DNA of 64,000 nt, taken from the NCBI GenBank assembly GCA_040388215.1, contig JAZKCH010000015.1, positions 17,771 through 81,770 on the forward strand, read 5' to 3'. Source of the DNA: Pseudomonadota bacterium (GTDB lineage Bacteria > Pseudomonadota > Alphaproteobacteria > Sphingomonadales > Sphingomonadaceae). Within the stretch, counting starts at the first letter, position 1. Each line of letters opens with the position of its first letter. Below are positions 14,422-63,673 of this stretch, in pieces. The notes beneath the pieces were generated by a model. That model ran no database searches. It had not been told where the DNA came from and saw nothing but the letters and a program-made list of their open reading frames with translations. The position numbers were made by a program, and so were the translations under genes.

Positions 14422-16134
14422 TCAGACCGCGATGATCGCTGCGTCGGCGTCCCCGTCCAGCAGCAGGTGGAGCAGGCCCGGCGCCGGGCGGGCGATCGCA
14501 TGGATGCCCAGTGCCTCGAGTGCGGGTGTCGAGGCGCGGTCGACATCCTTCAAGCGGATCCGCAGGCGGGTGCCATGCTGGCTTGCCGCCTCCAGATTGT
14601 CCGCGCCGCCGAGTGCGGCGACGGTGGCGGGGGTCAGCCGGATGTCGTTGGTGGCGACCGGTGCCGGCTCTGCGGTCGGGGGTGTCGCCTCGTTCGGCGC
14701 GGCGATCGCGTCGCGGATTTCGACCGCGACCGAATCGGCAATCGGACCGAGCACGATCTGCAGCGCGTTATCCGAGGGGCGGATCAGGCCGCGTGCGCCG
14801 AGTGCCTTCAGGCGCGCTTCGTCGACGCGCTTCTGGTTCACGACGATAAGGCGCAGGCGGGTCGTGCACGCGCCAACGCTGGTGAGGTTCGCCGCGCCGC
14901 CGAGCGCTTCGGCAAACGCGGCGCCGCGCTCGCTCTTGGCGACGGTTGCCGCGGCGACGGGTGCATCGCGCTCGCGGCCGGGGGTGGGCAAGTCGAGGCG
15001 CTTGATGACGGTGCGGAACAGGACGTAGTAGATCGCTGCATACGCGAGACCGACCGGGAGCAGGAGCAGCGGCTTGGTCGCCTTGCCGTAGTTCAGCACG
15101 TAATCGAACAGCCCGGCGGAGAAGCCGAAGCCCAATTTCACGCCGAGCGCATCCATCAGCGCCATCGACACGCCGGTCAGCACCGCGTGGATCGCGTAGA
15201 GCACCGGCGCGAGGAACATGAAGCTGAACTCGATCGGCTCGGTCACGCCGGTCAGCATCGAGGTTAGCGCGAGGCTGAGCAGCATGCCGCCGACCGCCTT
15301 GCGACGCTCGGGCAACGCGGTGTGGTACATCGCGAGGCAGGCGGCGGGCAGGCCGAACATCATCACCGGGAAGAACCCGGCCATGAACGCGCCCGCGGTC
15401 GGATCGCCTGCGAAGAAGCGCCGCAGATCGCCCGTGGTGCCCTGGTAATCGCCGGCGACGAACCAGACGATGTTGTTGAGCAGATGGTGCAGCCCAGTGA
15501 CGAGCAACAGGCGGTTGAGCAGGCCGAACGCGAACAGGCCGAACCCGCCTGCGCCGCTGATGCCGTAGCTGAGGCCATCGATACCCGTGCTGAGTGCGCC
15601 GAAGCCGAGGCCGACGACCAGCCCGAGCACGAGGCCTGCGACGCCGCTGACGATCGGCACGAACCGGCGCCCGCCGAAGAAGGCGAGATATTCGGGCAGC
15701 GCGATCGCGGAGAAGCGGTTGTAGAAACTGCCGCCGATCAGCCCCGACAGAATGCCGATCGGTACGTCGAGTCGGGCGATCGCCTTGGCCTTCCACGCGG
15801 CGGTGGCGAGCGCGATCGTGTCGCCGGTGAAACCTTTGAGCGCGTCGGCGGGGACGGTCATCAGCGCCTGCGCACCCTGCGTGGTGACGAGGTAGCAGAC
15901 CACGCCGGCGAGACACGCCGCGCCGTTGCCGTCGCGCGCGAACCCGGTCGCGACGCCGATCGCGAACAACAGGCCGAGATGCGAGAAGATCGCGTCGCCC
16001 GCTGCGCCGAGCACCGCGATGTCGAGCATGTCGGGCTGGCCGAGGCGCAGCAGGAGGCCGGCGACGGGGAGCACCGCGATCGGCAGCATGAGTGCGCGGC
16101 CGAGCGGCTGGAGGGCTTCGAGCAGCGACTTCAT
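14422..16134 (-). CDS. nagE: PTS N-acetylglucosamine-specific EIICB with an extra C-terminal EIIB-like domain
   Basis: LGRALMLPIAVLP, TGLHHLLN and GVTEPIEF (EIIC); ACTTRLR (EIIB, Cys423); second LGGADN...QHGTRLR domain. Confidence 0.92.
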   Translation of the reverse strand: MKSLLEALQPLGRALMLPIAVLPVAGLLLRLGQPDMLDIAVLGAAGDAIFSHLGLLFAIGVATGFARDGNGAACLAGVVCYLVTTQGAQALMTVPADALKGFTGDTIALATAAWKAKAIARLDVPIGILSGLIGGSFYNRFSAIALPEYLAFFGGRRFVPIVSGVAGLVLGLVVGLGFGALSTGIDGLSYGISGAGGFGLFAFGLLNRLLLVTGLHHLLNNIVWFVAGDYQGTTGDLRRFFAGDPTAGAFMAGFFPVMMFGLPAACLAMYHTALPERRKAVGGMLLSLALTSMLTGVTEPIEFSFMFLAPVLYAIHAVLTGVSMALMDALGVKLGFGFSAGLFDYVLNYGKATKPLLLLPVGLAYAAIYYVLFRTVIKRLDLPTPGRERDAPVAAATVAKSERGAAFAEALGGAANLTSVGACTTRLRLIVVNQKRVDEARLKALGARGLIRPSDNALQIVLGPIADSVAVEIRDAIAAPNEATPPTAEPAPVATNDIRLTPATVAALGGADNLEAASQHGTRLRIRLKDVDRASTPALEALGIHAIARPAPGLLHLLLDGDADAAIIAV

Positions 16135-18737
16135 GGGCGGAAACTCCGGGCGAGCGTTCGCACGTCCGCGGCTGAGATGCAGTTCATCGCGGCGGCGGCA
16201 TGCGCCCTACACGCGTCGATCGTAAGCGTCGCGACTAGCGCCTTGATCTCGGGCACGAGCGCGGGCGCGGACGAGAGTTCGGTGACGCCGAGGCCGATCA
16301 GGATCGGTACGGCGAGCGGATCGGAGGCGAGGCCGCCGCATACGCCGGTCCATTTGCCGTGGACCGCGCCGCCCTCGCAGGTGCGCGCGATCAGGCGGAG
16401 GACGGCGGGGTGGAGCCCGTCGAGGTCGCTGGCGACCGCCGGATTGCCGCGGTCCATCGCGAGCGCATATTGCGTCAGGTCGTTGGTGCCGATCGATAGG
16501 AAGTCGGCTTCGCTTGCCAGCAGGTCTGCGGTGATCGCGGCGGCGGGCGTCTCGATCATGATGCCGAGCGCGACATGTTCCGTGTGCTCGGTCGCGGCAG
16601 CGGCCGCGTCGAGCGCGGCGCGGACCGCGCGGAGTTCGGCGAGGCTCGCGATCATCGGCACCATGATGCGGCACTGGCCTGCGGGGCGGACCGCGAGGAT
16701 CGCACGCAGTTGTGCGTCGAGCATTTCGGGATGGGCTAGGCCGACGCGGATGCCGCGCAGGCCGAGCGCCGGGTTCTCTTCCGCGGCGATCGGGAGGTAG
16801 GGGGCGGGCTTGTCGCCGCCGATGTCGAGCAGGCGGACGATCAGCGGGCGGCCGTCGAGCGTGTCGGCGATGCGCTGGTAATCTGCGGTCTGTTCCTCGA
16901 CGCTGGGCGCGCTGTCGCGTTCGAGGAACAGGAATTCGGTGCGAAGTAGCCCGCAGCCCTCGGCGCCGTTACGGACCGCGGCCTCGGCATCGTCGGCAGA
17001 CCCGAGATTGGCGAAGGCTTCGATCCGGACGCCGTCCTGCGTGCGGCATTCGCGCGCGGCGTTGGCGAGCGCGGCGCGGCGGCGTTCGGTCTGCGCGTCG
17101 AACGCGGTTTGCGCGGTCGCCTGTGTTTCGGCATCGGGCGCGACGTGGAGCAGGCCCGCGCCGGCGTCGAGGATCAGCGGCGTGCCCGCGGCGATCTCGG
17201 CGAGGGCTGGGCCGACTGCGACGAGAGCGGGCAGGCCCATCGTCGCGGCGAGGATCGCGACATGCGAGGTGGGGCCACCGCGCTCGACGCAGAAGCCGAC
17301 GATCGAGGCTGTATCTAGGCCGAGCAGATGCGAGGGGAGCAGGTCATCCGCCAGCAGGATCGTGCCGGGTGGGAAGCTCAAGCGCTCGTCGAGGTCTTCG
17401 CCCGCGAGCGCGCGCAGGACCTGGCGTTCGAGGTCGAGCATGTCGTCGGCGCGTTCGGCGAGGCGGGCGTCGCCGGTGGCGTGAAGGGCGTCTGCCTGCG
17501 CACGGATCGCGGTGCGCCACGCATAGGCGGCGCTCTCGCCTTGGGTGATCGCTGCGTGCGCGGCGTCGGTGAGGGTCGGGTCGTCGAGCAGGGCGGCATG
17601 CGCGGACAGGATTGCGCGTTCGGCGCCGGTCGCGGTTGCCGATTTGGTGGCGAGGCGGTCTGTGACCGTAGCGAGCGCGGTGTCGAGTGCGGTGCGTTCG
17701 GTGGTTGCGCCCGAGCCTTCGCGGGTCACGGCGATCTCGGCGAGGCGGAAGAGTCCGGCCTGGCCGATCGCGATTCCCGGAGAGGCGGTGACGCCGGGCA
17801 GGCGGCCGTCAGCGGGGAGGGTGGTGGCTTTAGCGGCATCGCCCTTCTGTTCCCCCGCGGAGGCGGGGGCCCAGGACCCCGCGGCGCCATCGTTCTTGGC
17901 TCCTGGGCCCCCGCCTTCGCGGGGGAAAACGGAAGTGGACGGTGCTACTGCCGGGGGCGTGGTAGCACCGGACCCGGCCTTCTCACCCATGCCGCCGAGG
18001 ATCAGGTCGCCTATCGCCGCGAGCGCGTCGGTGGCATCTGGGCCGGTGGCGGCGAGCGTGATCTCGTCGCCGAGCTTTACGCCCAGCGCCATCAGCGCGA
18101 CCGGGCTGCGGACGTTACCGTCGCGCTCGTCCTTCGTGATCTTCACGTCGGACACGAACTTCCGCGCGGTCTCGCCGATGCGGGCTGCTGGGCGGGCGTG
18201 AATCCCGTGGACCAGCGGCACGACGATCGTGCGGCGGACGGTATCGCCCTCGACGATTGCCACGTCGGCGGCATCGACGCGCGGTTCGAGCGTCATCATC
18301 GCCTCGCCGACGCCGACCAGCTTGCCGGTCTCGCGGCGGACGATGGTGAAGTGCTCGGGGTTGGTGACGATCACCGGCGTGATGACCGCGCGCGCCTCGC
18401 AGACCAGCAGGTCGAGATCGAAGCGGATCAGCGGATCGAGCCGCTGGACGCTCGCGCCCTCGGTTACGCAAGGGGTGAACCCGCGGCCGCCGAGCGCCAC
18501 CGTGTCGAGCCCGATATGCATCAGGATCTCGGCGCCTTCGGGCGTGCGTAGCGTGATCGCGTGGCCGCTGGCGTGGACGCTGAGCACGACTGCGTCGCAC
18601 GGTGCGTGCAGGCAGTCGCCGGTCGGATCGACGGCGATCCCGTCGCCCATCATCCGTTCGGCGAAGACCGGGTCTGGGACCGCCTCGAGCGGCGATGCCC
18701 AGCCCTGGAGGGGCGACGTCAGGATGATCGGCTTCAT
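16131..18737 (-). CDS. nagF: Multiphosphoryl transfer protein EIIA-HPr-EI (NagF/PtsP)
   Basis: LMHIGLDTV (EIIA), GIHARPA (HPr), GPTSHVAIL, GLLRTEFLF and SIGTNDLTQY (EI). Confidence 0.92.
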   Translation of the reverse strand: MKPIILTSPLQGWASPLEAVPDPVFAERMMGDGIAVDPTGDCLHAPCDAVVLSVHASGHAITLRTPEGAEILMHIGLDTVALGGRGFTPCVTEGASVQRLDPLIRFDLDLLVCEARAVITPVIVTNPEHFTIVRRETGKLVGVGEAMMTLEPRVDAADVAIVEGDTVRRTIVVPLVHGIHARPAARIGETARKFVSDVKITKDERDGNVRSPVALMALGVKLGDEITLAATGPDATDALAAIGDLILGGMGEKAGSGATTPPAVAPSTSVFPREGGGPGAKNDGAAGSWAPASAGEQKGDAAKATTLPADGRLPGVTASPGIAIGQAGLFRLAEIAVTREGSGATTERTALDTALATVTDRLATKSATATGAERAILSAHAALLDDPTLTDAAHAAITQGESAAYAWRTAIRAQADALHATGDARLAERADDMLDLERQVLRALAGEDLDERLSFPPGTILLADDLLPSHLLGLDTASIVGFCVERGGPTSHVAILAATMGLPALVAVGPALAEIAAGTPLILDAGAGLLHVAPDAETQATAQTAFDAQTERRRAALANAARECRTQDGVRIEAFANLGSADDAEAAVRNGAEGCGLLRTEFLFLERDSAPSVEEQTADYQRIADTLDGRPLIVRLLDIGGDKPAPYLPIAAEENPALGLRGIRVGLAHPEMLDAQLRAILAVRPAGQCRIMVPMIASLAELRAVRAALDAAAAATEHTEHVALGIMIETPAAAITADLLASEADFLSIGTNDLTQYALAMDRGNPAVASDLDGLHPAVLRLIARTCEGGAVHGKWTGVCGGLASDPLAVPILIGLGVTELSSAPALVPEIKALVATLTIDACRAHAAAAMNCISAADVRTLARSFRP
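17850..17927. repeat. REP-type inverted doublet inserted in frame in nagF (78 bp, 26 codons)
   Basis: TTCCCCCGCGGAGGCGGGGGCCCAGGA-N24-TCCTGGGCCCCCGCCTTCGCGGGGGAA (26/27 inverted repeat). 17848-17874 matches the intergenic repeat arm at 51518-51544 at 24/27. Confidence 0.88.
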
Positions 18738-43854: not shown

Positions 43855-43868
43855 GCTGCCGATCTCGA

Positions 43869-43990
43869 TCCTCCCCCGCCAGGGGGAGGTGGCGCCGAAG
43901 GTGACGGAGGGGGAGGATACGGAACGGCTGTTCTCCTTTCCTCCCCCTCCGTCTGGCAAGTGCCAGACACCTCCCCCTGGCGGGGGAGGA
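43869..43990. repeat. ~120-bp nested palindromic intergenic element (RIME/CIR-like)
   Basis: Outer perfect 23-bp inverted repeat TCCTCCCCCGCCAGGGGGAGGTG; inner 15-bp inverted repeat GACGGAGGGGGAGGA; shares GGCACTTGCCAGACGGAGGGG (inverted) with 59417-59533. Confidence 0.85.
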
Positions 43991-44061
43991 TGAGAGGAGG
44001 GGCTGGGCTAGCCGGCTCCGATCGGGCATGGCTCCCCGCGGTAGGACGGGTGAGCGAACAG

Positions 44062-51514: not shown

Positions 51515-51517
51515 AAT

Positions 51518-51572
51518 TGTTCTCCCGCGAAGGCGGGAGCCCAGACTGGGTCCCCGCCTTCGCGGGGACACA
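51518..51572. repeat. REP-type inverted doublet between kdpB and kdpC
   Basis: TGTTCTCCCGCGAAGGCGGGAGCCCAG-A-CTGGGTCCCCGCCTTCGCGGGGACACA; each arm is itself a hairpin. Confidence 0.88.
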
Positions 51573-51584
51573 AGGAGTTGCAGA

Positions 51585-55521: not shown

Positions 55522-55576
55522 TGTTTCCCCGCGAAGGCGGGGACCCAGTCTGGGCTCCCGCCTTCGCGGGAGAACA
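55522..55576. repeat. REP-type inverted doublet downstream of kdpE
   Basis: 54/55 identical to the reverse complement of 51518-51572. Confidence 0.88.
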
Positions 55577-57604: not shown

Positions 57605-59412
57605 TGCACGACCTTCCCGCCATGATGCCGGGCGAGTCACCGATCGAGATGCTCCCGCAGCGTTTCGACGGGCCGCCGCCGCCCTGGTCCGCGCCCGAGC
57701 CGGGGCCGGGCATGGTCGTTTCGAACGACGATATGCTCGCGCGCCGGATCATCCTGATCTTGATGACCGGCCTGCTGGCGACCGCGGCATCGTCCGCGGT
57801 GCAGGAATCGCTGCTCGCCGATGGGCTGAGCCTGTGGGACGCGGTGCTGCTGGCGCTGTTCTTCCCGTTGTTCGCATGGATCGCGTTCGGCTTCATGAAC
57901 GCGGCAATTGGGTTTGTGCTGTTGATGACGGGCGGGCATCCGGGCTTCGTGCCCACGCCGCGGCAGTCCGAACCGCTCGAGGGTCGCACCGCGATCCTGA
58001 TGCCGGTCCACAACGAGGACATCGATGCGGTGTTCGAGCGGATCGCCTGGATGGCGCGCGCGATCGCCGCCGGCGGTGTCGCCGACCGGTTCGATATCTT
58101 CATCCTGAGCGACTCGGGCGAAGCGGCGGAGGCGGCCGAGGTCGCGGCGTGGCAGGCTCTCGCGCCGACGCTCGACTGCGCGCTCTATTACCGTCGCCGC
58201 ACCGAGAATGTGGGGCGCAAGCCGGGCAACGTAGCCGAGTGGATTCGGCGGTTCGGTGGCGGTTATCGGTACATGCTGATGCTCGACGCGGACAGCCTGA
58301 TGGGCGGCAACACGATCATCGGCATGGCGCAGGTACTCGAACGCCGCCCCGCGGTGGCGCTGCTCCAGACCGTGCCCGCGGTGATCAACGGCGTGACGTT
58401 TTTCCAGCGCTGGATGCAGTTCGCCAGCCGCCTCTATGGCCCGATCTCGACCGCGGGCCTAGTCTGGTGGTCGGGCTCGGAGGCCACCTTCTGGGGGCAT
58501 AACGCGCTGATCCGGATCGAAGCTTTCGCGAGCAGTTGCGGTCTGCCCGACCTGCCGGGCCGCGCGCCGTTCGGCGGCGTCATCATGAGCCACGATATGG
58601 TCGAGGCAGCGTTACTGCGCAGGCGCGGCTGGCGCGTGCATATGCTGATGACCGAGGAGACGTTCGAGGAATATCCGCCGACGCTGATCGACGCGGCGGT
58701 GCGCGATCGGCGTTGGGCGCAGGGGAATATCCAGCATCTGAGCCTGCTGACCTCGTCGGGGTTCCACTGGGTCAGTCGGCTGCAGCTGCTGATGGGCGCG
58801 TCGGCGTTCATCACCTCGCCGGTGTGGCTGCTGATGATCGCGACCAGCGTGGTGCAGGCGCTGATCGGCGAGCGCAACATCGTCGAGGCGCAGACCTCGC
58901 TCGAGGTGCTGATGGTCACGCTGTTGCTGCTGTTCGGGCCGAAGCTGCTGAGCGTGATCTGGGCGTTCTCGAATGCGGAGCGTCGCGAGGGGTTTGGCGG
59001 GCGGCGCGGGATCGTGCGGTCGGTGCTGGTCGACGTGCCGTTCTCGATGCTGTCGGCACCGGTGATCGCGTTGACGCAGACGATGGACCTCGCGGGGATC
59101 CTGATGGGCCGCAAGTCCGGTTGGGCGCCGCAGAACCGCGATGCGCAGGAGTTGTCGCTGGCTGACGTGATGCCGCGGTATCACTGGCATGTCGGGGTGG
59201 GCGTCGCGCTGTTGGCGGTGACCCCGTTTGCGCCGATCACTGCGGCGTGGCTCGCGCCGGTGACGCTGGGGCTGTTGCTCAGCCCGTTCCTGACGATGCT
59301 GACGGCGAGCGAGAAGGCGGGGAAGTGGGCGTCGTCGCATGGCATGTTCGTGGAGCCCGGCGAGCATGTCTCGGTGCTCTCACGGCCGTCGCTTCCGGCG
59401 CATAGCAGCTGA
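57604..59412 (+). CDS. opgH: Glucans biosynthesis glucosyltransferase OpgH/MdoH (short form)
   Basis: TGATG coupling; ILMPVHNE, ILSDS, RKPGN, LDADS, FWGHNA, SHD and RDRRWAQGN motifs. Confidence 0.95.
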   Translation: MHDLPAMMPGESPIEMLPQRFDGPPPPWSAPEPGPGMVVSNDDMLARRIILILMTGLLATAASSAVQESLLADGLSLWDAVLLALFFPLFAWIAFGFMNAAIGFVLLMTGGHPGFVPTPRQSEPLEGRTAILMPVHNEDIDAVFERIAWMARAIAAGGVADRFDIFILSDSGEAAEAAEVAAWQALAPTLDCALYYRRRTENVGRKPGNVAEWIRRFGGGYRYMLMLDADSLMGGNTIIGMAQVLERRPAVALLQTVPAVINGVTFFQRWMQFASRLYGPISTAGLVWWSGSEATFWGHNALIRIEAFASSCGLPDLPGRAPFGGVIMSHDMVEAALLRRRGWRVHMLMTEETFEEYPPTLIDAAVRDRRWAQGNIQHLSLLTSSGFHWVSRLQLLMGASAFITSPVWLLMIATSVVQALIGERNIVEAQTSLEVLMVTLLLLFGPKLLSVIWAFSNAERREGFGGRRGIVRSVLVDVPFSMLSAPVIALTQTMDLAGILMGRKSGWAPQNRDAQELSLADVMPRYHWHVGVGVALLAVTPFAPITAAWLAPVTLGLLLSPFLTMLTASEKAGKWASSHGMFVEPGEHVSVLSRPSLPAHSS

Positions 59413-59416
59413 TATC

Positions 59417-59533
59417 TCCTCCCCTGCAAGGGGAGGTGGCCGGCACTTGCCAGACGGAGGGGTGATACGCTCTCGATAGGGCGTCACCCCTCCGTCAGTC
59501 CTGCGGACTGCCACCTCCCCTCGCAGGGGAGGA
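59417..59533. repeat. ~117-bp nested palindromic element (RIME/CIR-like) between convergent opgH and MFS genes
   Basis: TCCTCCCCTGCAAGGGGAGGTGGC...GCCACCTCCCCTCGCAGGGGAGGA with inner GACGGAGGGG/CCCCTCCGTC arms; same family as 43869-43990. Confidence 0.85.
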
Positions 59534-59536
59534 TAA

Positions 59537-60982
59537 TTATGCGGCTTGGTGTCCGCTCAGCTCGGCACCCGCGTTCACCGCGAAACGTCGGTTCCAGATC
59601 GTCGCGGAGGCAGACACCGCGGTCACCACCAGGAACGCGAGCGTGAAATTCGCCAGCGCCGGCCGGGTCGCGCCCGTGCCGAGCATTCCGACATGCAGCG
59701 ACGCCGCCCCCACGCAGATGCCGAGCGACAGCATCAGTTGCTGGAACGTCGCGTAGAAGCTGGTCGCGCTGCTCATCCGCGACGATGGGATCTCGTCATA
59801 CGCGATCGTGTTGTACGCCGAGAACTGGAAGGACATGAAGAAGCCTGACACCAACAATACCGCAAAGATCGCCGGGATCGGCCAGTCGGGGCGGAAGAGG
59901 CCGGCGACGGCATAGCCCGAACTCGCGCATAGCCCGCCGACGATCAGGCTGTTGCGGAATCCGAAGCGCCGGAGCACGCGCGGGGCGAGCCCCTTCATTC
60001 CCAGCGAGCCGATCGCACCGGCGATCGTGATCGCGCCGCTCGCCGCCGCGGTCATCCCGAAGCCCAATTGGAGCATCATCGGCAACAGGAACGGCTGTGC
60101 GCCCTGCGTGATGCGGGTCAGTGATCCGCCGATCACCGACAGGCGGAAGGTGGGGATCCGCATCAGCGACAGGTCGAGGATCGGGTCGCTGCGGTGTTTC
60201 GCGTGGCGGATATACGCGATGCCGGCGATCAGGCCGACCACGATCAGCACGACCGCACGCGAGAGTTCGCCGGTGCGGCTTGTCATCTCGAACCCGAACA
60301 GCAGGCAGCCGAGCGACACACCGGACAGGATGAAGCCGGGGACGTCGAAACGCGCCGGTTTGTCCTCGCGCACCTCGCCGATGTAGCGCGTCACCAGGAT
60401 CACGCCGAGCAGGCCGATCGGCACGTTCAGGTAGAAGATCCAGCGCCAGTCGAGATACGTCACGATCGCGCCGCCGACCGGTGGCCCCAGGATCGGGCCG
60501 ATCAGCGCGGGCATGATCAGCCACGACATCGCCTGGACCATGTCCTCCTTGGCGACGCTGCGGAGCAGGACGAGGCGGCCGATCGGGATCATCATCGCGC
60601 CGCCGAGCCCTTGCAGAAAGCGGGCGACCATCATGAACGGCAGGCTGGTCGCCTGGCCGCACAGCATCGATCCGCCGACGAAAATGAGGATCGCTGCGCG
60701 GAAAATGGTGCGCGAGCCGAACCGGTCCGCGAGACGCCCGCTGGCGGGAATGAAGATCGCCAGCGCGAGCAGGTATGAGGTCAGCGCCGAACTCATGCTG
60801 GTCGCGGGCACGCCGAAATCGCGTGCCATCGTCGGCAGCGCGGTGGCCAGCACGGTCGAGTCCATCTGCTCCATGAACAGCGCGCAGGCGATGATCAGCG
60901 CGGTCACGCGGTAGTTGCTCGGCGTGTGCGGCAGCGCGTCGGGGTCCTTGGCGACGCGCGCGATGGTGTCGGCGGCGGGCAT
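59537..60982 (-). CDS. DHA2-family (14-TM) MFS transporter
   Basis: Likely start MPAADT at 60982; MEQMDSTV, GRLADRFG, GPILGPPVGG and WRWIFYLNVPIG motifs. Confidence 0.9.
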   Translation of the reverse strand: MPAADTIARVAKDPDALPHTPSNYRVTALIIACALFMEQMDSTVLATALPTMARDFGVPATSMSSALTSYLLALAIFIPASGRLADRFGSRTIFRAAILIFVGGSMLCGQATSLPFMMVARFLQGLGGAMMIPIGRLVLLRSVAKEDMVQAMSWLIMPALIGPILGPPVGGAIVTYLDWRWIFYLNVPIGLLGVILVTRYIGEVREDKPARFDVPGFILSGVSLGCLLFGFEMTSRTGELSRAVVLIVVGLIAGIAYIRHAKHRSDPILDLSLMRIPTFRLSVIGGSLTRITQGAQPFLLPMMLQLGFGMTAAASGAITIAGAIGSLGMKGLAPRVLRRFGFRNSLIVGGLCASSGYAVAGLFRPDWPIPAIFAVLLVSGFFMSFQFSAYNTIAYDEIPSSRMSSATSFYATFQQLMLSLGICVGAASLHVGMLGTGATRPALANFTLAFLVVTAVSASATIWNRRFAVNAGAELSGHQAA

Positions 60983-61035
60983 GATGCCGTCGCGGATCTC
61001 GCTGTTGATCGAGGCGAGACCGCGTCTGCGGAGCC

Positions 61036-62574
61036 TCACGTCTGCCACCCTCCGCCGAGCGCCTTGAACACGTCGACCTGGCGATCGACGAGCAACGCGT
61101 CGGATGCGGCGAGGTTCGCTTGCGCGGTGGTGAGCGCGGCCTGCGCGGTCAGCAGCGACAGGAAGTCGGTGCGGCCGAAGCGGTAGAGCGTACCGGCCTG
61201 ATCCGCGGCGCGCGCGGCGCTGGACTGGGCACGGCGAAGCGCGGCGTTGCGGTCGCCTTCGCGGGCATAGGCGGACAGTGCGGTCTCGGTTTGGCGCAGG
61301 GCCTCGAGCGTGGTCGAATCGAACTGGGCGAGCGCCTGGTCAGCCGTCGCACCCGCCTGCGCGATCTGGGCGCGAACGACGACACGGTTGGGGAAGCTCC
61401 AGCTTATCAGCGGCCCGAGCCCGAGATGGAACGCGTTGGTCGAGCCTAGCGACGACACCGGCCCGGTGAAGCCTGCCGAACCACCGAGGCTGACTTGGGG
61501 ATAGAGATTCGCGGTCGCTACGCCGATCCGCGCGGTGGCGGCGGCGAGAGTGCGTTCGGCACCGCGGATATCGGGGCGGCGGCGGATCAGCGCTGCACCG
61601 TCACCGATTGGGAGCGGGCGGTTGAGCGCGGGCGGCTTTGCGCAGGTGGCGACGTCCTTCGGGTAATCGGCGGGCGCGCGGCCCATCAGCGTGGCGAGGC
61701 GGTACAGCGCGGCGGTGCGTGTCGCGACCTGTGCGGGGATCAGCGCCTCGCTCTGGTCGACTGCGGTACGGGCGCGCGTCACGTCGAACGCGGTGCCGCG
61801 GCCGCCGCGTTGCAGGCGTTGCGTCACGTTGAGAGTCTGGCGTTGCAGGGCGAGGATGCGGTTGTTGGCGGCGAGCACCGAATTGGCGGTGCATGCGGCG
61901 GCATAGCTGCGTGCGGTCTCCGCGGCGACCGTCACGCGGACATTGTCGCGCGCGGCGGCGACCGCCTCGGCATCGCCCTGCGCGGCCTCGATGCCGCGGC
62001 GGATGCGACCTGAGAGGTCGAGCGGATAGGCTAGCGTGATGCCGAGGTTATAGTCGAGCGTGCCGGGGAGGTTGCCGCCGGTCGTGTACGGGCGGTCGAG
62101 CGAGGTGCCGCCGCCGAGTACGGTCGACAATGTGCGGCCTGCGGCGACTTCGGCGACGACTGCGTCGGCGCGGCGGAGGTTGGCGTCGGCGGCGCGGAGA
62201 TCGGTGTTGGCGGCGAGTGCTTCGGTGACGAAGCCGTCGAGGCGGGGGTCGCCGTAGAGTTGCCACCAATGGTCGGGGAGCGGGGTATCGACGAACGCCT
62301 TTTCATGGCCGCTGTCGAACTGGCCCTGGGCGGAGGGGAGGTTGACGGCGGCGCGGTCGAGGAGGGCGTAGTTCGGGCCGGCGGTGGTGCAGGCGGCGAG
62401 GGCGAGCGCGGCGATGACCGTCGCGAGACCGTAGCGACCAACACGCGCCGTCTCCCTGCCCCCGTCATCCTGACGAAAGTCAGGACCCAGAGCCACGAAG
62501 GGCGGCGCTTGTGATCCTGGGTCCTGACTTTCGTCAGGATGACGGACGGGAAGGGGGCTGATCGCGCGCATCAT
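61036..62574 (-). CDS. Efflux outer-membrane lipoprotein (NodT family) with a REP-derived insertion in its signal-peptide n-region
   Basis: ATGA overlap with the HlyD gene stop; lipobox LAAC (Cys62); RRPDIRGAE and ANLYPQVSL motifs; VFKALGGGW terminus. Confidence 0.9.
   Translation of the reverse strand: MMRAISPLPVRHPDESQDPGSQAPPFVALGPDFRQDDGGRETARVGRYGLATVIAALALAACTTAGPNYALLDRAAVNLPSAQGQFDSGHEKAFVDTPLPDHWWQLYGDPRLDGFVTEALAANTDLRAADANLRRADAVVAEVAAGRTLSTVLGGGTSLDRPYTTGGNLPGTLDYNLGITLAYPLDLSGRIRRGIEAAQGDAEAVAAARDNVRVTVAAETARSYAAACTANSVLAANNRILALQRQTLNVTQRLQRGGRGTAFDVTRARTAVDQSEALIPAQVATRTAALYRLATLMGRAPADYPKDVATCAKPPALNRPLPIGDGAALIRRRPDIRGAERTLAAATARIGVATANLYPQVSLGGSAGFTGPVSSLGSTNAFHLGLGPLISWSFPNRVVVRAQIAQAGATADQALAQFDSTTLEALRQTETALSAYAREGDRNAALRRAQSSAARAADQAGTLYRFGRTDFLSLLTAQAALTTAQANLAASDALLVDRQVDVFKALGGGWQT
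62462..62545. repeat. CGTC-type REP doublet (perfect 29-bp inverted repeat, 84 bp) lying in frame inside the outer-membrane lipoprotein gene
   Basis: CCGTCATCCTGACGAAAGTCAGGACCCAG-N26-CTGGGTCCTGACTTTCGTCAGGATGACGG; each arm has a CCTGAC-GAAA-GTCAGG hairpin. Confidence 0.92.
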
Positions 62575-63470
62575 GCCGTCGTCCCCGGCGCGACGCGCGG
62601 TTCGACCGTCACCGTCGCGGTGCGGCCGACGATCAGTTGTGTCCCCTTCGGCACCTGGGTCAGCTTCACGCGCACCGGAATGCGCTGCGCCAGCCGCACC
62701 CAGTTGAAGGTCGGGTTCACATTGGGCAACAGGTTGGTCGTGTTGGTCCGCTCGCTGTCGTTGATCCCCGCGGCGATGCTGTCGACGCGGCCGTGGAGGG
62801 CTTGCGGCTCGCCCATCAGGTGGACGATCACCGGGTCGCCGAGGTGGATGCTGCCGAGCTTGGTCTCCTCGAAATAGCCCTCGACGCGGAGCGAGTCGGT
62901 GTCGACCAGCGCCATCGCCTGCGCGCCCGTCGCGATGTAATCGCCGGGGTGGAGATCGAGGTTGGTGACGATCCCGTGCACCGTCGCGCGCACCGTGGTG
63001 CGGGCAAGGTTGAGCGCGGCGGTCGAGCGCGCGCTTTGGGCCTGGGCTAGAGCTGCCGATGCGGTTGCGACACGCGCGACGTTCTGCTCGTGGGTTTCCT
63101 TCGCCACCAGATCACCGAGCGCCAAGTCGCGCTGCGCTTCACGGCGCGCCTGCAACAACGTCGCACGCGCGCTCGCAATTGACGCGTCCGACTGCGCCAG
63201 CGTCAGTTCAAAGCGCGGGCGATCGACCACGAACAGGATGTCGCCGGGCTTCACCGCCTCGTTGTCGTGCACCGCGACCTGCGTGACCAGCCCTGCGACG
63301 TCTGGCGTCACGCGGACGATATCGGCGCGGATATGCCCGTCGCGCGTCCACGGATCGGTCTCGTACCGCTTCCACAGCCACAGCGCGACCAGCACCGCGA
63401 GCGCGACGATGACGATCGTAACGGCGGAACGGCCGAGGGGGGCGAACAAGGATTTCAGGCGGGTATTCAT
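62571..63470 (-). CDS. HlyD/AaeA-family membrane fusion protein
   Basis: PWTRDGHIRAD, VTPDVAGLV, GYFEETKL and WVRLAQRIPVRV motifs. Confidence 0.93.
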   Translation of the reverse strand: MNTRLKSLFAPLGRSAVTIVIVALAVLVALWLWKRYETDPWTRDGHIRADIVRVTPDVAGLVTQVAVHDNEAVKPGDILFVVDRPRFELTLAQSDASIASARATLLQARREAQRDLALGDLVAKETHEQNVARVATASAALAQAQSARSTAALNLARTTVRATVHGIVTNLDLHPGDYIATGAQAMALVDTDSLRVEGYFEETKLGSIHLGDPVIVHLMGEPQALHGRVDSIAAGINDSERTNTTNLLPNVNPTFNWVRLAQRIPVRVKLTQVPKGTQLIVGRTATVTVEPRVAPGTTA

Positions 63471-63673
63471 GCGGAAGGTCCGGTCAGCAGGGCGAGCAGC
63501 CCGAGGATAAGGAAGAACAGCGCGAGATCGACGAGCGGTCGATACGTCACCGCGCGATAGGCGCCGGCGAACGCAAGCAGTCGCGTGGCGATGCCGGTGA
63601 GGAGCACGGCGGCGACTGCGAGCAGCAGGATGCTCGGCAGGTAGACGCCGCCGATCGAGATTTCGCCGGTCAT
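63467..63673 (-). CDS. DUF1656/AaeX-family small membrane protein
   Basis: MTGEISIGGVYLP...YRPLVDLALF; ATGA overlaps on both sides. Confidence 0.88.
   Translation of the reverse strand: MTGEISIGGVYLPSILLLAVAAVLLTGIATRLLAFAGAYRAVTYRPLVDLALFFLILGLLALLTGPSA

Follow-up and report, generated by a model that had tools for sequence, protein, structure and literature searches.

A CGTC-tagged REP dimer probably translated within the signal peptide of an outer-membrane factor lipoprotein in Sphingomonas

Introduction

Repetitive extragenic palindromic (REP) sequences of the CGTC class carry the tetranucleotide CGTC at their end, followed by a stem of 8-9 bp that opens with the pairs A-T and T-A, by a loop of 4-5 nt and by a short unpaired 3' tail with the consensus CCA (PMC3733652). 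They are mainly found as head-to-head dimers, mostly in alpha-proteobacteria including the sphingomonads and mostly just 3' of open reading frames (ORFs), and no dedicated transposase has been reported for them (PMC3733652). Intragenic REP dimers encoding 20-30 amino acids were listed, some of them at the N-termini of ORFs (Di Nocera, De Gregorio & Rocco 2013, PMC3733652), and most N-terminal REPs in ORFs were judged to be probable misannotations (PMC3733652). The present work concerns one N-terminal copy, an 84-bp dimer at positions 62462-62545 (minus strand) of a stretch of 64,000 nt, hereafter the window, from a Sphingomonas genome of the faeni/aurantiaca group. The dimer lies within the 5' end of a gene for an outer-membrane factor (OMF) lipoprotein. 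Comparison with orthologous loci makes it quite probable that this REP was caught behind a coupled start codon, is translated and is discarded with the leader of the protein.

Two other groups of palindromic repeats are relevant here. Rickettsia palindromic elements (RPEs) are inserted in frame and translated within functional genes (Ogata et al. 2000, reviewed in PMC10969869), and two of them, RPE-4 and RPE-6, are CGTC REPs (PMC3733652). REP doublets forming hairpins, or REPINs, are mobilised by the REP-associated tyrosine transposases known as RAYTs (Bertels & Rainey 2011, PMC3116915). A literature search returned nothing relevant on an in-frame REP within a signal peptide. Long N-terminal extensions of signal peptides do exist: in autotransporters and in two-partner secretion (TPS) proteins, the extended signal peptide region (ESPR) places at least 25 extra residues before a normal n-h-c signal peptide and is compatible with Sec export.

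Anatomy of the element and of the leader

The OMF gene (61036-62574, minus strand) encodes a 512-residue precursor of the NodT/OEP family, matched in two stretches by Pfam OEP (E = 4e-36). The assignment agrees with the two OEP repeats and with the presence in the same operon of a membrane-fusion protein and of inner-membrane pump genes (FUSC, MFS). The gene opens with two consecutive ATG codons (62569-62574, minus strand), the first of which overlaps the TGA stop codon of the upstream HlyD gene in an ATGA (62571-62574), an arrangement that makes the start a translationally coupled one. The REP dimer begins at the third base of codon 10 and ends with the second base of codon 38. Read in the sense of the gene, its 5' arm (62517-62545, CCGTCATCCTGACGAAAGTCAGGACCCAG) is composed of the CGTC tag, the stem ATCCTGAC/GTCAGGAC, the loop GAAA and the tail CCA, and encodes (V)RHPDESQDPG. 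A spacer of 26 nt, variable among copies, forms the loop of the dimer (62491-62516) and leads to the 3' arm (62462-62490), which encodes LGPDFRQDD(G). The arms are 29 nt each and 100% complementary. A perfect 29-bp inverted repeat of 84 bp at the 5' end of the OMF gene, with an ATG overlapping the HlyD stop, had been reported in a preliminary description of the window, and the sequence bears out both. In the frame in use, OMF residues 11-37 read RHPDESQDPGSQAPPFVALGPDFRQDD. Two of the three sense frames of the element are open and the remaining one holds three TGA codons.

Matches to the 22-nt core of the arm are not expected by chance (0 of 100 shuffles). The 84-nt element alone folds at -66.4 kcal/mol, and the folding energy of a 151-nt RNA context is -99.4 kcal/mol (z = -9.07). 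A scan of 62200-62800 found no promoter, no terminator and no T-run after the hairpin; an intrinsic terminator was discarded, given that the hairpin lacks a following T-run. A search for an Rfam identity over 62300-62700 returned only animal miRNA hairpin models below threshold (34 bits for a gathering score of 90), which are generic hairpin matches.

Downstream of the element, the remainder of the signal peptide (62392-62461) comprises the G-rich REP flank and a variable n-region, GGRETARVGRYG, and then the h-region LATVIAALALAA. The lipobox LAAC spans codons 59-62 (62389-62400), and Cys62 (62389-62391) is the predicted first residue of the mature protein. This lipobox conforms to the pattern [LVI][ASTVI][GAS]C, follows the basic residues R40, R44 and R47 and a hydrophobic core (...R40-E-T-A-R44-V-G-R47-Y-G-LATVIAALA-LAAC62), and aligns with the cysteine of 117 homologues. 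Its distance from the start codon is unusual. The cysteine of lipoprotein leaders commonly stands about 15-30 residues from the start and is at position 20 or less in 109 of the 117 OMF homologues, against position 62 in the window. The 49 residues that precede the hydrophobic core include 6 K/R and 7 D/E.

The sequence of this region is reliable. Contigs from the Logan assemblies of four independent public runs cover 61900-62488 and 62519-63100 without a single difference or gap, and the spacer is bridged by a 70-nt unitig. A frameshift in the assembly had been envisaged, as one base missing after the GTG at 62444 would yield a perfect short leader, and was ruled out by the agreement of the four assemblies. 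The sequence is present in about 20 public runs, some labelled 'RNA?', in the form of contigs breaking at the repeat; these confirm the sequence and the copy number. Summed over the arms, the depth exceeds that of the flanks by a factor of 80-160, corresponding to about 100 arm copies per genome.

Conservation of the reading frame across orthologous junctions

The principal evidence for translation of the repeat comes from the DNA of 19 orthologous Sphingomonas junctions between the HlyD and OMF genes. Measured between the T of the HlyD stop and the Cys codon, these junctions are 47, 65, 86, 113, 182, 185, 191, 194, 209, 212, 278 or 293 nt long, and all 12 lengths equal 2 modulo 3. In 19/19 junctions, the ATG or GTG overlapping the stop codon of HlyD shares the frame of the Cys codon, with no intervening stop. 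Thirteen of the 19 loci had been found independently of the N-terminal frame, either by tblastn on the mature part or through gene calls that use a downstream start (L087-L090). Being located without an N-terminal reference, these loci are free of ascertainment bias. They display 8 lengths and so imply at least 7 indels, all of them multiples of three, for which the probability by chance is about 3^-7. When eight REP-bearing copies are aligned, the gaps span 0, 3, 6, 9 or 12 columns before the REP and 0, 12 or 15 after it.

Orthologues free of REP start at the ATG overlapping the HlyD stop and have their cysteine at position 15-17, as in L007 (MTRGWMTGVAGLLLAGC), compared with 62 in the window; the leader indel anticipated in the preliminary description is thus apparent in the alignment of orthologues. 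Starts located after the REP are not conserved: none is found in frame in the window, L002, L004, L083 or L084. Several loci have an in-frame ATG or GTG in the spacer only, and, beyond the coupled one, L083 and L084 lack any canonical start ahead of the Cys codon. In the window, in-frame ATG, GTG or TTG codons ahead of the cysteine occur only at codons -61 and -60, which are the coupled ATGs, and at codon -35, a GTG (62494-62496, codon 27) inside the spacer. The earlier statement that no such codon lies between the element and the lipobox is literally right, although it left this spacer GTG unmentioned. The further claim that the precursor must include REP-derived residues is in line with the 19 stop-free, in-frame junctions and with the lack of any other start in L083 and L084. 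Upstream of the coupled ATG stands a motif resembling a Shine-Dalgarno (SD) sequence, GGGGA, with a pairing energy of -5.7, within the range of the other genes of the operon (-3.2 to -6.9), while the spacer GTG has no SD (+0.3).

Across the REP-bearing loci, the mature part of the gene aligns without gaps over 1330 nt, with identities of 94.8%, 96.3% and 71.5% at codon positions 1, 2 and 3, a pattern which clearly points to purifying selection on the mature OMF gene. Selection of this kind implies that the gene is functional, and its protein must then be translated and exported. It bears on an alternative according to which the OMF gene is dead or silent in this strain, the REP and the loss of a downstream GTG (now GTT45) having disabled its export or translation while another TolC/NodT protein serves the pump. 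The extremely atypical leader, the presence of GTT in the window where a near-identical relative has its start, and the several OMF paralogues of Sphingomonas genomes (L014-L016, L020, L040) could be invoked in its favour. Its ORF is nevertheless intact over 512 codons, its mature protein is 92-96% identical to those of relatives with a strong excess of change at third positions across the REP-bearing lineages, and the REP-bearing state persists through 10-15% nucleotide divergence in at least 10 genomes. Loss of function is highly improbable. In the non-REP flanks, the fraction of G+C at third codon positions is 0.82 upstream and 0.61 downstream, values that are confounded by the G- and C-rich REP flanks and by the non-independence of the sequences.

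Translation of the whole repeat from the coupled start is the simplest reading of these comparisons. In this scenario, an 84-bp REP dimer would have inserted just after the coupled OMF start, in the n-region of the signal peptide, as an autonomous and perhaps selfish palindrome caught in the sole permissive stretch of a fully overlapped operon. The gene remained intact because the unit amounts to 28 codons and is open in two of its three sense frames. Ribosomes would start at the ATG overlapping the HlyD stop and read through the hairpin, giving a precursor with a leader of 61 residues in place of about 16 in the repeat-free orthologues. After Sec export, the action of Lgt and signal peptidase II would yield a mature lipoprotein presumably identical to that of the repeat-free relatives, and peptides derived from the leader would contain RHPDESQDPGSQ. 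Initiation at the coupled ATG, export, cleavage and the near-neutrality of the insertion are all steps that we infer. The preliminary description had proposed that the insertion is tolerated because signal peptidase II discards it; the repeat does sit in the segment removed from the mature protein, and the cleavage by that enzyme is the presumptive part of the proposal.

Alternative start codons

Several observations weigh against initiation at the coupled ATG. A leader of 61 residues whose N-terminal part is net acidic is far from the norm of the family, and a hairpin of -66 kcal/mol placed 29 nt past the start codon could hamper elongation. A GTG stands just after the REP, at -22 or -23 codons, in L001, L003 and L087, and strains with such post-REP starts may make a short leader. 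Finally, P0144, a near-identical protein of S. faeni, is annotated with an M start at the position of GTT45 in the window, where initiation may take place at GTT or at another non-canonical codon.

These observations lead to an alternative in which the REP is functionally intercistronic: translation of the OMF would begin either from the spacer GTG (62494-62496) or from some non-canonical codon, for instance GTT45, and half or all of the REP would be leader RNA. It is in keeping with the published opinion that N-terminal REPs are mostly misannotated (PMC3733652), with the annotated start of P0144, which falls exactly at the GTT45 codon, with the GTG of L001, L003 and L087, and with the short forms of 463-490 aa called by PGAP and others. 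A motif resembling an SD is moreover available (62441-62456, minus strand): GGGAG (62452-62456) ends 9 nt before GTT45 and pairs well with the anti-SD (-8.6, as scored with the 17 nt that precede the out-of-frame GTG at 62444). The canonical codons behind this motif, the GTG at 62444 and a TTG at 62441, are however out of frame, and the G-rich flank accompanies every copy of the family and is hence no dedicated ribosome-binding site. The spacer GTG, besides its lack of SD, lies in the loop of a 29-bp stem, is absent from L083 and L084, and if used would still translate the 3' arm. No downstream start is conserved, and an intercistronic REP leaves unexplained an upstream ATG that remains in frame and free of stops through 12 junction lengths. 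An intercistronic repeat is accordingly held to be unlikely, and translation from the coupled start is retained as the preferred explanation.

The G-rich motif being the generic 3' flank of the family, REP insertion may create spurious ribosome-binding sites. The GTG and TTG behind GGGAG open an ORF of 145 aa (62031-62468, minus strand, +1 frame) inside the OMF gene.

The repeat, which start finders evade or trip over, is also a systematic source of trouble for start calling. Public annotations of the P0001 cluster (213 members, 90%) give lengths of 463, 468, 473, 475, 487, 489, 490, 494, 512 and 513 aa, so that start-site calls within one cluster differ by up to 50 codons, and some annotated leaders have no basic residue at all (MAASILALALAAC). 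Comparing frames among orthologous loci, as done here, offers a simple means of settling the annotation of starts in repeat-bearing genes.

History of the junction

In neighbour-joining trees of both OMF and HlyD, all loci with a CGTC REP fall in one clade, at 85-90% nucleotide identity, which indicates that the insertion is old and was kept in frame across species. The junction of close relatives has hosted three REP families. The CGTC type is present in the window, L001-L004, L083-L085, L087 and L089. L006 and L090 carry REPs of a CCCTCCC/GGGAGGG type, and those of L005, L008 and L088 belong to a CCCCGGC/GCCGGGG type. Both non-CGTC types are nested in the CGTC clade and are in frame, with leaders of 65-98 codons. 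An ATG at -15 codons was noted in L005 and L008 and is absent from L088. The copy of L089 has an extra in-frame partial duplication of 21 nt of the REP 5' end (CGTCATCCTGACGCCCCACTC; L089 1100-1310). Two loci without REP core, L081 and L080, align to both flanks of the REP (TCCT followed directly by GGACGGGG), and their junction would represent either an empty site or the scar of a near-precise deletion of the palindrome. L080 also has a further in-frame deletion of 27 nt.

The arms are strongly conserved. Their identity among orthologues is 92-96%, the identity of their third codon positions reaches 94.5%, compared with 71.5% for those of the mature gene, and the flanks in the n-region are only 50-60% identical. 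These features, together with the succession of three REP families at one junction, two of them nested in the clade of the first, invite another explanation, compatible with translation of the repeat: the hairpin would be selected as an intra-operon control element, either a site for RNase III or exonucleases or a translation-dependent switch, lowering OMF relative to FUSC, DUF1656 and HlyD, and its translation would be no more than the cost of a place in a spacer-free operon. With its 29 bp, the perfect duplex has the length needed for an RNase III substrate, and cleavage within the duplex of the window would part the sole start codon from the coding region. Similar conservation is nonetheless seen by eye in orthologous intergenic copies (L021/L047/L057; L025/L031/L034), so that the high conservation of the arms probably characterises the family as a whole rather than the site. 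REPs are also known to attract further insertions, which would give turnover without selection, and the REP-free orthologues L007, L086, L080 and L081 function with plain leaders. Recruitment of the hairpin for control therefore appears rather unlikely. The more specific proposal, that the HlyD-OMF junction is a selected hairpin site (switch or RNase III site) setting the ratio of OMF to membrane-fusion protein, is quite unlikely; if true, it would amount to a regulatory element that has to be encoded as protein and lies concealed in a leader destined for removal. Either way, a junction reoccupied by several REP families offers a concrete place to ask whether hairpins are recruited for intra-operon control.

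The element family and the frequency of coding copies

The family was surveyed in about 90 loci fetched from related genomes, and 69 copies were aligned. The 22-nt core occurs 158 times in these loci. Four of these occurrences are singlets and the others form 77 head-to-head doublets, 68 of them measuring exactly 84 bp. In the consensus, the arms are invariant, C-CGTC-ATCCTGAC-GAAA-GTCAGGA(C/T)-CCAG, the spacer is variable, and degenerate flanks of about 11 nt are C-rich on the 5' side and G-rich on the 3' side. The CGTC tag is kept at 90% or more across the 69 copies, and the tail CCAG follows the stem in both arms. A single polymorphic pair (C/T...G/A), seen both matched and mismatched, distinguishes otherwise nearly invariant arms. 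With T, as in L001 and L083 among others, the stem ATCCTGAC/GTCAGGAT reaches 8 bp; in the GGAC copy of the window, an A.C at the first pair leaves a stem of 7 bp. By its tag, loop, tail and dimeric arrangement the element matches the published CGTC-tagged class of REPs, of the CGTC-1 type. Insertion into pre-existing hairpins was considered and rejected: complementarity of the flanks is 4.85 of 14 within copies and 4.88 between copies, and the bias of the flanks is compositional.

Coding copies were counted among about 78 doublets of the CGTC family of the window in related genomes, by a two-flank coding score, which is blind to terminal insertions, and then by walking to the nearest stops and starts. 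With the coding score, none of the roughly 78 doublets had same-frame coding on both sides. At gene 3' ends that face a REP, 55 of 59 stop before it, and the only copies that have no start codon behind them are those at the HlyD-OMF junction. The family hence appears to be still mainly extragenic, its coding members being rare exceptions or survivors. The preliminary description had extrapolated from two in-frame insertions in the window to a genome-wide population of protein-coding REPs, an idea which this census does not support, as only the junction copies lack a start after the REP and none is found mid-gene. Nor is a length divisible by three, to which that description drew attention, a sign of selection for this element, since the unit itself is 84 bp in 68 of 77 doublets and keeps the frame automatically.

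The second in-frame insertion of that description, the nagF case, is real. Its class (7-bp stem, 4-nt loop, tail CCCAG) has four doublets in the window, two of them intergenic and two in ORFs, namely the nagF doublet and the one of the OMF gene. The nagF doublet (17850-17927) is 78 bp long, with the stem CCCCCGC and the tail CCCAG, and is placed in frame within the HPr-EI linker of the ORF 16131-18737 (minus strand), which encodes an 868-aa EIIA-HPr-EI protein of the phosphotransferase system (PTS). Homologues free of REP lack about 29 residues at this site. In the two closest relatives, P0121 (297 aa) and P0122 (S. aurantiaca, 301 aa), the frame shifts inside the repeat and a stop follows, which indicates that the gene is split or truncated at the REP. 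The intergenic doublets are tight, with a spacer of 1 nt: one lies between kdpB and kdpC (51517-51573) and the other just after a kdpE-like response regulator gene (55522-55576).

The efflux operon

The OMF gene is the fourth of five in an efflux operon at the end of the window, on the minus strand, in the order FUSC-DUF1656-HlyD-OMF-MFS. Every junction is a 4-nt overlap of start and stop (three ATGA, then one GTGA), leaving an operon without intergenic space. The FUSC-type gene (from 63670 onward) lies upstream of DUF1656 and runs off the window. It is followed by the gene for the small membrane protein DUF1656 (63467-63673), with an ATGA overlap at both ends, by the gene for the HlyD/AaeA-type membrane-fusion protein (62571-63470), whose stop overlaps the OMF start, and, after the OMF gene, by the gene for the MFS transporter, the last of the operon (59537-61048). 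The listed MFS ORF extends to a GTG at 61048; the start is likely the GTG at 61037-61039, within the GTGA (61036-61039) that overlaps the OMF stop, as in orthologous loci. The neighbours of the OMF gene in those loci have the same Pfam assignments. A third class of REP (CCTCCCC...GGGGAGG) forms doublets at 59404-59546 and 43868-43991 of the window. The former overlaps the MFS stop, and the efflux operon thereby has REPs both internally and at its 3' end.

Comparison with known systems

The tag, the loop of 4 nt, the CCA tail and the head-to-head dimer are common to the element of the window and to CGTC-1 REPs. The stem likewise begins with AT, but in the window copy its first pair is an A.C mismatch (the GGAC variant). 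With respect to the published survey (PMC3733652), the comparative frame data argue that the N-terminal copy described here is truly coding, and a site in a lipoprotein signal peptide is undescribed there.

The likeness to RPEs lies in the insertion in frame, in the translation and in a toleration achieved through structurally permissive segments. RPE-1 is, however, larger (about 100-150 bp) and often intragenic, in a reduced genome, whereas intragenic copies of the window family are rare. The peptide encoded by an RPE also stays in the mature protein, in contrast to that of the window element, which is presumably discarded with the leader. As in REPINs, two inverted REPs separated by a short spacer form a single long hairpin whose length is fixed, and which is present in tens to hundreds of copies per genome and persists vertically at orthologous sites. 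Classical REPINs are tagged by GTAG and linked to a flanking RAYT gene, and the terminus of the window element is CGTC, not GTAG. As for the ESPR, it is a conserved motif with a proposed function, unlike the present extension, which is derived from a repeat, is unconserved outside this repeat and precedes a lipoprotein leader for signal peptidase II.

The locus indicates that the n-region of a signal peptide can absorb some 28-80 extra, partly acidic, repeat-encoded residues over species-level time, which bears on the tolerance of Sec and Lol targeting and on the survival of mobile palindromes in operons devoid of intergenic DNA. Palindromic repeats translated in frame are a known phenomenon; what distinguishes the present case is the site in a signal peptide and the turnover of REP families at a single junction.

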